Assembly (NCBI GenBank): GCA_032718475.1
Contig: JAUCBJ010007102.1
Coordinates: 1-39,866, forward strand
Length of the DNA: 39,866 nt
Source: Nemertoderma westbladi
Taxonomy: Eukaryota; Animalia; Xenacoelomorpha
Reading direction: 5' to 3'
In this document: piece after piece, positions 26,018 through 29,708 of the stretch
How positions within the stretch are numbered: the first letter of the stretch is position 1
Layout of the letters: each line of letters begins with the position of its first letter
Position numbers and translations under genes: made by a program
Notes under the pieces: generated by a model
Databases searched by the model: none
Told to the model about the DNA's origin: nothing
Seen by the model: only the letters and a program-made list of their open reading frames with translations

Positions 26018-26189
26018 TATTTCTACCTAAATTACTATCTAAATTACCAATAAAATTCAAAAACTTTGGAAAAAATGCTCGAAATATCCCGGGTCTTGCC
26101 ATACACACAACATTTCATGTGTAAAAAACGCAAAATGTTATGATATTAGAACTAGTTTTACCCCGACGATAAAACTGCACAAGAATATT

Positions 26190-26769
26190 TGTGACGGGAT
26201 CAGGGGATCCCGACCAGTTTGTTCGTGTTACGCATCACCGTGTGGTTTGTTGCAAAAGGTAATAGTTCATTGTTGTCGCTCTGATACTGATGTGGAATAT
26301 ATTGATATAATATATGTGATAGCAAAATGGACAATAACAGTATAAGTCAGATAATGAATATTACCGGTACTGGCGGTGACGGTACAAGAATGTCACCGAT
26401 CTGCTCTAGATGACTGACTGAGATAACTGAGTGATAATATAATAACTGATAATATATATATTCACCCTTACTCTACTGTGGCCTTGGTACCTAGCGGATG
26501 CTCTCGTCCCTGTCCCTGATTGTATAGTATACTAATTCTCGGCTCCCACCTCTGTGGGAGTGTTTCCCCCCCGATGCTGTTACTTTCCCTCTCCCAAGAG
26601 GTTTGACCTATAACCTGTTTTGTGTGACTCTTTGGGGCCGTGTGTTGTCCCCGTTATTGGGGGTGATACGAGGTTGATTGTAATCAACCTCGTACTCCCC
26701 AATATTGCTTAAAGGCGCCACTTCCCAACTTTATGGGGGCTATGTGAGGCGGAATTAAATCCGCTCACA
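26190..26769 (-). mobile_element. Solo LTR (BEL family, related to 19464-20037)
   Basis: TGTGA...TCACA termini and a perfect 5-bp TSD ATATT (26185-26189 and 26770-26774). Confidence 0.92.
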
Positions 26770-26867
26770 ATATTATTAAATATCTCCGGCTCATATTTCA
26801 CCTCCACATTATAATAATTATCTAAAAAATGAAACCCAGCCGTTTTCATTAATTTCCTATAGTCTAT

Positions 26868-27598
26868 GTGGGGCGAGACACGTAGTCGGCGAGCCTTGGC
26901 ATACGGTTCATATAGGGCAAATGGGGCATGTCCGTCTGTCTGTCTGTCTGTCTGTCTGTCTGTCTGTCTGTCTGTCTGTCTGTCTGTCTGTCTGTCTGTC
27001 TGTCTGTCTGTCTGTCTGTCTGTCTGTCTGTCTGTCTGTCTGTCTGTCTGTCTGTCTGTCTGTCTGTCTGTCTGTCTGTCTGGTAAATGTTTGAACGCGA
27101 ATTTCTCTGCATCGCTGGTTCGGAATTGAACCAAACTTAGTAGGTAAGTAGTAGAGAAAAAGTTTAGAAAGTTTGTAAAGTTTGGTGAAAAATCATGCAG
27201 TCTGACGTTAGCTACGACAGATTATGTGGTTTTTAGAAAATGTTAAATTTCTCGGGAAGGCCTCATTTTCCTGAGCTTAAATTTTGGTGGCCTGTAGAGA
27301 ATCATGAAGTCTATCTTTTACGAAATTGAAAAGTTAAGACATTTAATTGGGGATCCGCTAGAGACTCAGAAGTAATGACATAGGCCTACCGGTACGGTAC
27401 TGCTGTACAGTGCTGCACTGGTAAGTACGAAATTGCATAATAACAATTTGACACCACCTAGCGGATTAACATATGATTGTATATCGAATGAATACATTTA
27501 TAGCATGGGATATTGGGTCCAAAACTAGACATGCCCCATTTGCTCTATATGATCCGTATGCCAAGGCTTGCCGACTACGTGCTGCGCGAAGTCCCCAC
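26868..27598. mobile_element. Non-autonomous element with ~65-70-bp terminal inverted repeats and an internal microsatellite; no TSD
   Basis: Termini GTGGGG...CCCCAC. Arms 26879-26932 and 27528-27581 are reverse complements with about 3 mismatches. Confidence 0.8.
26934..27081. repeat. (GTCT)n microsatellite, ~37 units
   Basis: Read directly from the sequence. Confidence 0.98.
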
Positions 27599-29708
27599 GA
27601 ACGTGTCTAGATTGTTAATAATATAAGTTTGGCTGTTGATTGAAATAAAAGTTAGTTTATAATCAGTATGCTTATATATATACTTAATAATTTTTTTTAT
27701 TTTAGGCGATTTACCGAGTACAGTGACCTTACTGCTCGGGAAAAAGAGACACGTCCCTCCGCAAATTTTGGCGATATATTGAAAAGGCTTTAAGATGAGT
27801 TTTCCATTTCGAATTCGTTTAGCCAGCACATCGAATGATATGCACCCATCAACCAACCTCAAACTTACATTACTGTTGACAACACTAAAAGACATCGCAA
27901 TCCGCTATTCTATAATGGGCGGTATATAAAGCTTAGGGGCTGGCGCTTTACGATCCAAATGTGTTTTATAATGGCCGTAAGGTAGACTTTCATTAGTCGA
28001 TGTGTAGTATCTTTTATCTTCCCACAGTGCAACACACTGTAAAAAAAAGAATCCGTGTCCCCACCTAGCAAATTTATACTACAATTTAATTTGGCTTCCA
28101 GGGGCATTAATTTCTCGTAGAAGAAACTGTAATAATCTAACTTCGACAGGTCCAATACAGCTTGGCCTAAAAAAATAGGTTTTTGCAAACAGATAGGACG
28201 TGACCTGATAATGAATCAGTGAACATAATTAAATTTTCATGATTCGGCTTGGATAATAATAAGTCACATTTCTCGATTGAATTACATAAGCAAAATGAGA
28301 CACGGTCCCGTATATTCTCCATGCTTTTCCCGAAAAGCGCGTTATTTGTTCCTTTATGAAACTTATCATAAAAGTCATTGCTTGCTATTTTTCTTTGCCG
28401 AATATTCAATAAAATTCTTAAAAATGTAACCTTGCTTAAATCTAATAAGTTTATGAACTTTAATCAAGCGCATACCATGATTAATATAAAAGTGCAATAA
28501 TTTTAGATGCACACCGTACTCATACTTATCAAATTGGGTTAACATCAATTTTTTCGTTGAACTATTGAAAATTTTATCACCATTATAAATGTCGCCAAAG
28601 ACTTTTCATGTTTGGACTGAGATACCTACTATCGAGTTTAACATGCTCCGGCGCAAATGGAAGCTCGGCTGTGGCATCATGAATAGTCGTTGGGTATTCG
28701 AGGTCTACTACAACAAAATATCCGTATATATCGTCAATTTCCAGACTCATGATATCGACACTATCAACATCCAACCATTCAAAGTCAGAATAAAGAAGTT
28801 TCTCCGACAATGAACCGCTATATAAACTGTTGAAATCTAAATTATATAAATGAGCTTCAGGTTTATTAGGGTCGTATGTTTCTGTGCCTGGTATATTCGC
28901 ATTTGTCATATGAAGGTTGGTGTAAGAAACTCCACCCATAATGGAATTTTCGAATGTTAAATACATTTCATGGTCTGCAAGTAGACGAATATGCGACTTG
29001 GAAAATCTCAAAGCCGCGTCCCAACTAACCCCTGCCATCGTGTAATAGTTCGAGACCTCAAGCGAATAATGTTTAGTACAATAAGCGCGAAAATTTTCAA
29101 AAATATCGGCTAGTAGCAACACGTGAAGATGTAAGTAAGCTTCCAAATAATCAAAAAGTGTCTCACATTCAAATTGTTCCCACGAAAGATGAGCAAATGT
29201 ATATTCTTCAGGGCTATTAGATGACAATGTTAATCCACTGTAAAACTCTTTCGGATGCGGTTCGGATTGATTTGCTGGTTGGGAGCCCTCTTACGTCCTT
29301 TTCCAGAATAGCATAACCGAGCACGCTAAGTGCTTCTGACATTGGAATATCTATGCGAAGTGAGATATATCTTTCAGTATTTTTTGCAATGGTTTTAATG
29401 TTCCAGTTTTTATATTTACTACCAGCAAACCCTTTTTGTAAAATTAAATGTGAATCATAAAAAAAAATAATGACAGACAACTGGGAATAGGTGACGTTTA
29501 ACACTTAATTGTTTATTACAGGAAATACATGCCGCCCCAATGAAAGCCCCCTTGTAATGGTTGTGATGCATTACACTTGGATTTATATCTTCCCGAAAAA
29601 ATGATTTACAATTAAAGCAATGTGTGGTACACATATAAGCTTGGTATTGTGTGCGATCCAGGTGTTTGGGGTGGTGTGTGTTAAAGGTAGACCATTCATA
29701 ACACTTAA

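Follow-up and report, generated by a model that had tools for sequence, protein, structure and literature searches.

Our analysis supports the presence of a gene resembling TATA-binding protein (TBP) in a Polinton-type element of Nemertoderma westbladi. This is a real viral gene that is found across its family, and it is dead in the copy that lies in our window (the whole stretch of 39,866 nucleotides that was analysed, contig JAUCBJ010007102.1). Its likeness to TBP, as judged from the sequence, is real but weak.

A Polinton-type gene cluster

The window is rich in transposons, and a Pfam scan finds BEL/Pao genes in it (PF05380, DUF1759, and DUF5641). On the minus strand, a viral cluster spans 23894 to about 29706. 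Its genes, all on that strand, are in order a broken protein-primed DNA polymerase B (pPolB), the TBP-like gene, a basic ORF, and an A32-like ATPase. A preliminary description of this DNA had expected core-protein and ATPase genes to come next on the same strand, and core-like and ATPase genes are indeed there.

The polymerase remnant (27905..29706, minus strand) includes an endonuclease-VII-like segment and was identified by Pfam, by its relatives, and by tblastn. It has several frameshifts and stops, and tblastn places its pieces in three frames; the N-terminal part was not found in the window. Its Pfam matches (PF03175, E = 1.1e-4, and PF02945, E = 0.0024) are both below the gathering score. 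It has 20 relatives at 28–40% identity, and the named ones include insects and flatworms. The basic ORF (24551..25012, minus strand) is similar to the ORF that follows the ATPase in the Polinton contig L154 (E = 8.2e-11) and shows 25% identity to L010. It is an ORF of the type that adjoins the ATPase in Polintons; "core protein" is the label used for it in the preliminary description. The A32/FtsK-like packaging ATPase (23894..24533, minus strand) has 58 relatives, the best at 41–43% identity, and a match to Pox_A32 (E = 0.002). It carries small indels relative to the high-depth copies described below, and its end at 23894 is cut by a BEL-type fragment; contigs from public sequencing runs have loose ends before 23894, and other copies continue differently there.

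Both the protein-primed polymerase and the packaging ATPase are features of Polinton/Maverick/adintovirus elements. Such elements also have terminal inverted repeats and a target duplication. Of 149 inverted repeats, the 25 longest include no fitting pair of Polinton-type terminal inverted repeats, and the viral fragment is truncated. Remnants of an integrase, capsid, or protease were not found in the window (by tblastn with the ORFs of 7 and 28 related loci), where the copy is cut at 23894. No RNA polymerase subunit was noticed in the viral fragment, which is incomplete, and an Rfam scan of 23500–39866 gave no match.

Three insertions and a stop codon in the window copy

In the window, the TBP-like gene is in three pieces on the minus strand. 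Piece 1 (27608..27895) has 96 codons from the ATG and covers the first repeat and the start of the second; piece 2 (26775..26861) has 29 codons and bears the motif YEPEIF; and piece 3 (26022..26183) has 54 codons. In all, they encode about 180–185 amino acids, which is shorter than the earlier estimate of about 190. The peptide motifs that had been reported are present in place and strand. We also confirmed that the ATG at 27895 comes 9 bp after the stop that ends the frame encoding the polymerase C-terminus, and that a stop codon interrupts piece 3 at 26115–26117. This stop codon sits at a column that is invariant in 71 of 71 TBPs. The final frame enters the poly(A) tail of an insertion without first reaching a stop.

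Pieces 1 and 2 are separated by a non-autonomous TIR element (26867..27605) with a (TGTC)38 microsatellite inside, which we recognise by its inverted arms (94% complementary over 54 nt), by a flanking duplication of 4–5 bases (26863–66 and 27606–09), and by contigs (in run X4, its left end recurs with other flanks). An exact in-frame join across this element had been proposed on the assumption that it covers 26868–27598. The join itself is backed by read-through in runs X1 and X3, but with the element at 26867–27605, the proposed version keeps 12 non-gene bases. Pieces 2 and 3 are separated by a solo LTR (26190..26769, TG...CA) with a copy of the 5-base duplication ATATT on each side, as had been described. 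It is 72% like the LTR at 19464–20038, and we infer by association that it is BEL/Pao. The preliminary description counted these two insertions only and missed a third (about 25490–26018, plus strand), the 3' end of a non-LTR retroelement with a poly(A) tail, which lies at the end of the TBP-like gene and has low depth compared with the viral genes. Pfam gives no match in this retroelement, which is presumably CRE-like.

With three insertions and a stop codon, the TBP-like gene in the window copy is a pseudogene. The GC content at third codon positions (GC3) is 0.22–0.34 in its pieces, 0.30–0.34 in the viral neighbours, and 0.56 in a BEL gag gene.

The gene is contiguous in high-depth copies

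Four public runs (X1–X4) carry part of the polymerase and piece-1 stretch (7–27% of its words). We aligned run contigs to 23880–26925; X4 is without cover over most of the TBP-like gene. In three of the four runs (X1, X2, and X3, which come from two studies), contigs skip exactly 585 bases, that is, the LTR and one duplication. The depth of these LTR-skipping contigs is 2068, 20172, and 3345 in X1–X3, versus 79, 137, and 116 in the LTR-interior bin. At the TIR site, loose ends behind 26869 continue into piece 1 in two of the four runs (two contigs in X1 and one in X3). Therefore, the family has an abundant form without both inserts, and in its high-depth copies, the TBP-like gene is contiguous across both insertion sites. 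The viral genes are at least 25 times deeper than the LTR-interior bin in X1–X3 (depth is no copy number), and the depth of the TBP-like gene in these runs resembles that of the other viral genes. X1 and X2 are two libraries of one sample, and their viral-to-LTR depths are 26 and 147, about fivefold apart, which hints at library bias or extrachromosomal copies.

The window copy differs from other copies by a few per cent. Among the 40 listed of 132 differences, 27 lie in those portions of the core and ATPase genes that are in frame; of the 27, 18 are at third codon positions (p = 4e-4; 11 of 17 listed in the core-like ORF and 7 of 10 listed in the ATPase). Thus, the core and ATPase neighbours of the TBP-like gene diverged under purifying selection. 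One of the 40 listed differences falls inside the TBP-like pieces.

Likeness to TBP

Using 71 natural TBPs (3 viral and 68 from prokaryote genome loci), we made a profile and scored against it the gene read through with an X at each break. It reaches 15.0 bits (single-sequence E = 6e-7), while the best of 2000 shuffles has 6.2 and the reversed sequence −0.3. The natural order of the pieces scores best of the 6 orders. If YEPEIF is masked, the score falls to 1.2 bits, which 18 of 1000 shuffles reach; if the shuffles keep YEPEIF, the best has 14.7 bits and 0 of 1000 reach 15.0. Among the 1205 six-frame segments of the window, the frame of piece 2 ranks first on the TBP profile and the frame of piece 1 fourth.

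The gene shows two collinear repeats in about 180 amino acids. On a single-repeat profile, repeat 2 beats 1000 of 1000 shuffles (p < 0.001) and repeat 1 is reached by 31 of 1000 (p about 0.03). An hhalign comparison with TBP covers 146 columns with a score of 33.0, versus 24.5 for the best of 150 shuffles (E = 9e-5, probability 59%). The best pairwise scores are with archaeal TBPs (13.9 vs. 9.7 bits), but at 15–25% identity and with two eukaryote-type references, this is too weak to point to a donor. With piece 1 alone, which is without YEPEIF, the top match in the ESM Atlas is a TBP cluster (0.85, 157 of 256 features), and 10 of 10 named matches are in one family or clan. This match is below the tool's 0.9 line, and we treat it as a lead only.

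No piece scanned alone reaches the gathering score of PF00352, so we file the gene as TBP-like and not as a PF00352 member. Piece 1 has no relative among 1.84 billion representatives, and it has no match in viral contigs or among PDB sequences; a word search for longer proteins gave 0 of 84 candidates. A weak Pfam match of piece 1 to TGF-beta (E = 0.06) was dismissed as chance. The single-sequence model of piece 1 (pLDDT 43.7) has the order strand, helix, three strands, helix, and three fold searches with this poor model of a lone repeat (pLDDT 44) gave no clear match, with no TBP among the matches listed. The resemblance to TBP that the preliminary description proposed is seen in the profile score and the hhalign alignment but neither in Pfam nor in the fold searches with piece 1. 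Overall, we consider it very probable that the gene would encode the two-repeat saddle fold of TBP.

Conserved and altered residues

We compared the gene with the residues in Table 1 of PMC12529657, whose yeast numbers are our numbering of L004, a viral TBP, plus 57. In the hhalign alignment, the columns of yeast N69, F99, L114, F116, E186, E188, F190, F207, and V213 are kept. All four columns of the DNA-intercalating phenylalanines (F42, F59, F133, and F150 in L004; F99, F116, F190, and F207 in yeast) have phenylalanine. Of the 16 DNA-contact positions in that table, 7 are kept (N69, F99, L114, F116, F190, F207, and V213), 7 differ (V71, A101, V122, T124, P191, L205, and T215), and N159 and V161 are not reliably placed. 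The first of the base-reading asparagines is kept; for the second, HMMER and hhalign disagree and there is a candidate by eye. Several columns that are near-invariant in the 71 TBPs also differ, including glycine, proline, and threonine columns. The acidic stirrup for TFIIB is kept as YEPE in piece 2. According to PMC12529657, the first base of the TATA box is determined by P191, while the acidic stirrup is tied to TFIIB binding and is missing from the herpesvirus protein ORF24.

With the four phenylalanine columns and the first asparagine conserved, the protein of intact family members would likely bind the minor groove and bend the DNA. Given changes at about half of the remaining DNA-contact positions, the preferred box is likely not TATAAA. 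Since YEPE preserves the acidic stirrup, the protein would also be likely to contact host TFIIB.

A TBP and a TFIIB gene in another Polinton

Scanning with the polymerase alignment turned up 28 loci, one of which (L156) has a clear TBP ORF; these loci carry at most 10 kb of flank, so a missing TBP weighs little. Scans with the ATPase gave 0, 1, and 6 loci, with a TBP ORF in none. L156 encodes pPolB, dUTPase, an adenain-like protease (E = 0.003), an rve integrase, TBP, and TFIIB; a further gene looks capsid-like by eye, given its resemblance to L007 and L154. Its TBP (181 amino acids, on the polymerase strand) matches PF00352 with 51.8 bits (E = 7e-14), and it overlaps the TFIIB gene, which matches PF00382 with 42.9 bits (E = 5e-11). 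At L156:9876-11074, the intact TBP and TFIIB genes are adjacent, both are above the Pfam cut-off, and they are head-to-head with the capsid-like gene.

L156 and the window share the same class of polymerase (31% identity to the window piece), and in L156 as well, TBP is on the polymerase strand. In contrast to the window gene, the TBP of L156 is intact, passes the Pfam cut-off, and is arranged head-to-head with the capsid-like gene and followed by TFIIB. We detected no likeness between the two proteins, so separate acquisitions are possible; a search of viral contigs with the TBP of L156 returned only the self-match. The preliminary description had proposed looking for intact copies linked to Polinton genes. 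L156 provides such a linkage, but in another lineage and with a TBP that is not like the window's. It is a better object for experiments than the window copy.

No TBP was detected in L154, which is the closest to the window in gene order. At L154:11373-11885, this Polinton without TBP has a weak match to the PC4 coactivator/ssDNA-binding family (PF02229, E = 0.003).

Possible role in transcription

The reading that we favour, as somewhat probable, is that intact members of the family encode a viral promoter-recognition factor that uses host RNA polymerase II. The gene would encode a strongly diverged TBP that is a bare saddle. The intact protein would bend a variant AT-rich box, a viral variant of the TATA box, and the saddle would recruit host TFIIB and RNA polymerase II to viral genes. 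By analogy with the herpesviruses, the target genes would probably be late genes. The earlier proposal that this virus lineage encoded its own TBP holds insofar as a TBP-like gene lies in a Polinton-type element, but the match is below every library threshold that was tried and the function is predicted from residues.

We searched for promoter elements in the window. For the variant box T/C-ATAAAC-A/G, there is no match on the sense strand ahead of either the core or the ATPase gene, and the one match on the opposite strand, at 25048, is such as chance could give. We found no upstream box in common on the sense strand. In this AT-rich DNA, TTTATATA lies 30–40 bases before both the TBP-like ATG and the core ATG.

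A second possibility is that the protein has the TBP fold and does not act in transcription start. Instead, it could sequester host TFIIB or promoters as a decoy, or it could bind AT-rich genome ends or origins. This would fit with the many changes at DNA-contact and structural columns, with the lack of a promoter box before the core and ATPase genes, with the tight coupling to the polymerase gene (9 bp), and with the lack of a detectable TBP in L154, the closest organised relative. Nevertheless, it seems unlikely because the protein retains both the four phenylalanines and the acidic stirrup and because L156 pairs TBP with TFIIB, which points to initiation. Also, late genes are driven by herpesvirus TBP mimics whose surfaces are just as altered (PMC12529657).

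Third, this could be a real viral gene of unknown fold that resembles TBP by chance, from one six-residue motif. The TBP hypothesis was picked after the motif was seen, the score collapses without YEPEIF, and searches of Pfam, PDB sequences, and representatives are blank. On the other hand, piece 1 is free of the motif and still has TBP as its top Atlas match, and the length and the spacing of the four phenylalanines fit over 146 columns. Further points against chance are that the natural order of the pieces is best, that repeat 2 beats all 1000 shuffles, and that another Polinton carries a TBP gene; we consider this reading improbable.

Finally, a host TBP or TRF copy that decays as passive cargo without a role might be broken four times, as in the window copy, and be missing from 27 of the 28 polymerase loci examined, but this is very improbable given an identity of only about 25% to eukaryote-type TBP (far beyond the few per cent between copies), no N-terminal extension, a start 9 bp after the polymerase, viral-type GC3, and a depth in X1–X3 like that of other viral genes.

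These readings bear on how Polintons without their own RNA polymerase time their capsid and packaging genes. If a promoter-recognition factor is the right reading, then a bare TBP of 180 amino acids whose DNA surface has changed and whose TFIIB contact is retained would be the smallest viral redirection of host RNA polymerase II known. It would be the counterpart of a six-protein complex in herpesviruses and would be testable on natural intact examples such as L156. More speculatively, animal Polintons may have acquired minimal private initiation factors more than once (TBP alone here and TBP with TFIIB in L156), which would make host RNA polymerase II follow a viral promoter code, and the family in the window may still be active, perhaps replicating outside chromosomes, as the fivefold depth difference between X1 and X2 hints; we hold this broader scenario only tentatively.

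Comparison with other TBPs

The protein is like cellular TBPs (PF00352; eukaryotic and archaeal) in its about 180 amino acids, two repeats, four phenylalanines, first asparagine, and YEPExF motif. Unlike them, it is virus-borne, is below the Pfam cut-off, and is about 25% identical to the eukaryote-type proteins. The locus adds a very divergent TBP-like lineage with no close relative in protein collections; its family seems to be abundant in the host.

Giant viruses and mirusviruses (L001, L002, and L004) also encode TBP. These are large viruses, and mirusviruses encode their own RNA polymerase (PMC10132985). As described in PMC12529657, KSHV ORF24, the TBP mimic of beta- and gamma-herpesviruses, is like the window protein in being a viral TBP mimic without a viral RNA polymerase, in keeping the four phenylalanines, and in having an altered, more polar DNA surface. 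However, ORF24 has 752 amino acids, carries a Pol II-binding domain of its own, depends on five further viral factors, and is without the acidic TFIIB residues (same source). The window protein is a bare core of about 180 amino acids that keeps these acidic residues, and it has none of the ORF24-type features (a long protein, a Pol II-binding N-terminal domain, extra C-terminal domains, and loss of the acidic TFIIB residues).

The preliminary description regarded TBP as absent from the canonical Polinton gene set. A gene label "TBP" is, however, already used for MELD viruses with an adintovirus-like PolB in a figure legend by Starrett et al. (Fig. 5; 2021, PMC8502044). Like the window element, these would be mid-size viruses that have a TBP-like gene with a Polinton-type PolB, going by the available part of that paper. 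The section with that figure covers non-animal datasets and, in its text as available, does not discuss the label; one supplement of PMC8502044 had no TBP match. In the full texts that a literature search could reach, TBP was linked to Polinton-like viruses only in the legends of PMC8502044 (Fig. 5) and of the preprint 10.1101/697771. The main texts of a framework preprint (10.64898/2026.06.19.733378, 2026) and of a coral study (PMC11131425), as far as accessible, contain neither TBP nor TATA.

Other features of the window

Much of the remaining window consists of mobile elements and repeats. A BEL/Pao element at 5790–18864, with ORFs at 8680–15121, lies between long direct repeats that are 12.4 kb apart, and there is another gag-type ORF at 723–4949. 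The LTR at 19464–20038 that resembles the solo LTR has no matching flanks and adjoins a BEL-type gag-protease ORF (21359–23881), by which the ATPase is cut. A 162-base tandem array (30251–30800) lies directly upstream of the polymerase remnant. An element at 32241–33638 has 169-nt inverted arms (98%) with 20-base tandem arrays in both arms, and a 22-base minisatellite at 37650–38450 has many inverted self-matches. On the plus strand, a 577-codon open frame (35566–37299) has no match in Pfam, PDB, or the Atlas. On the minus strand, 39003–39866 is an open acidic ORF with no Pfam family above the cut-off; it contains 27- and 84-base repeats and is cut by the end of the window.
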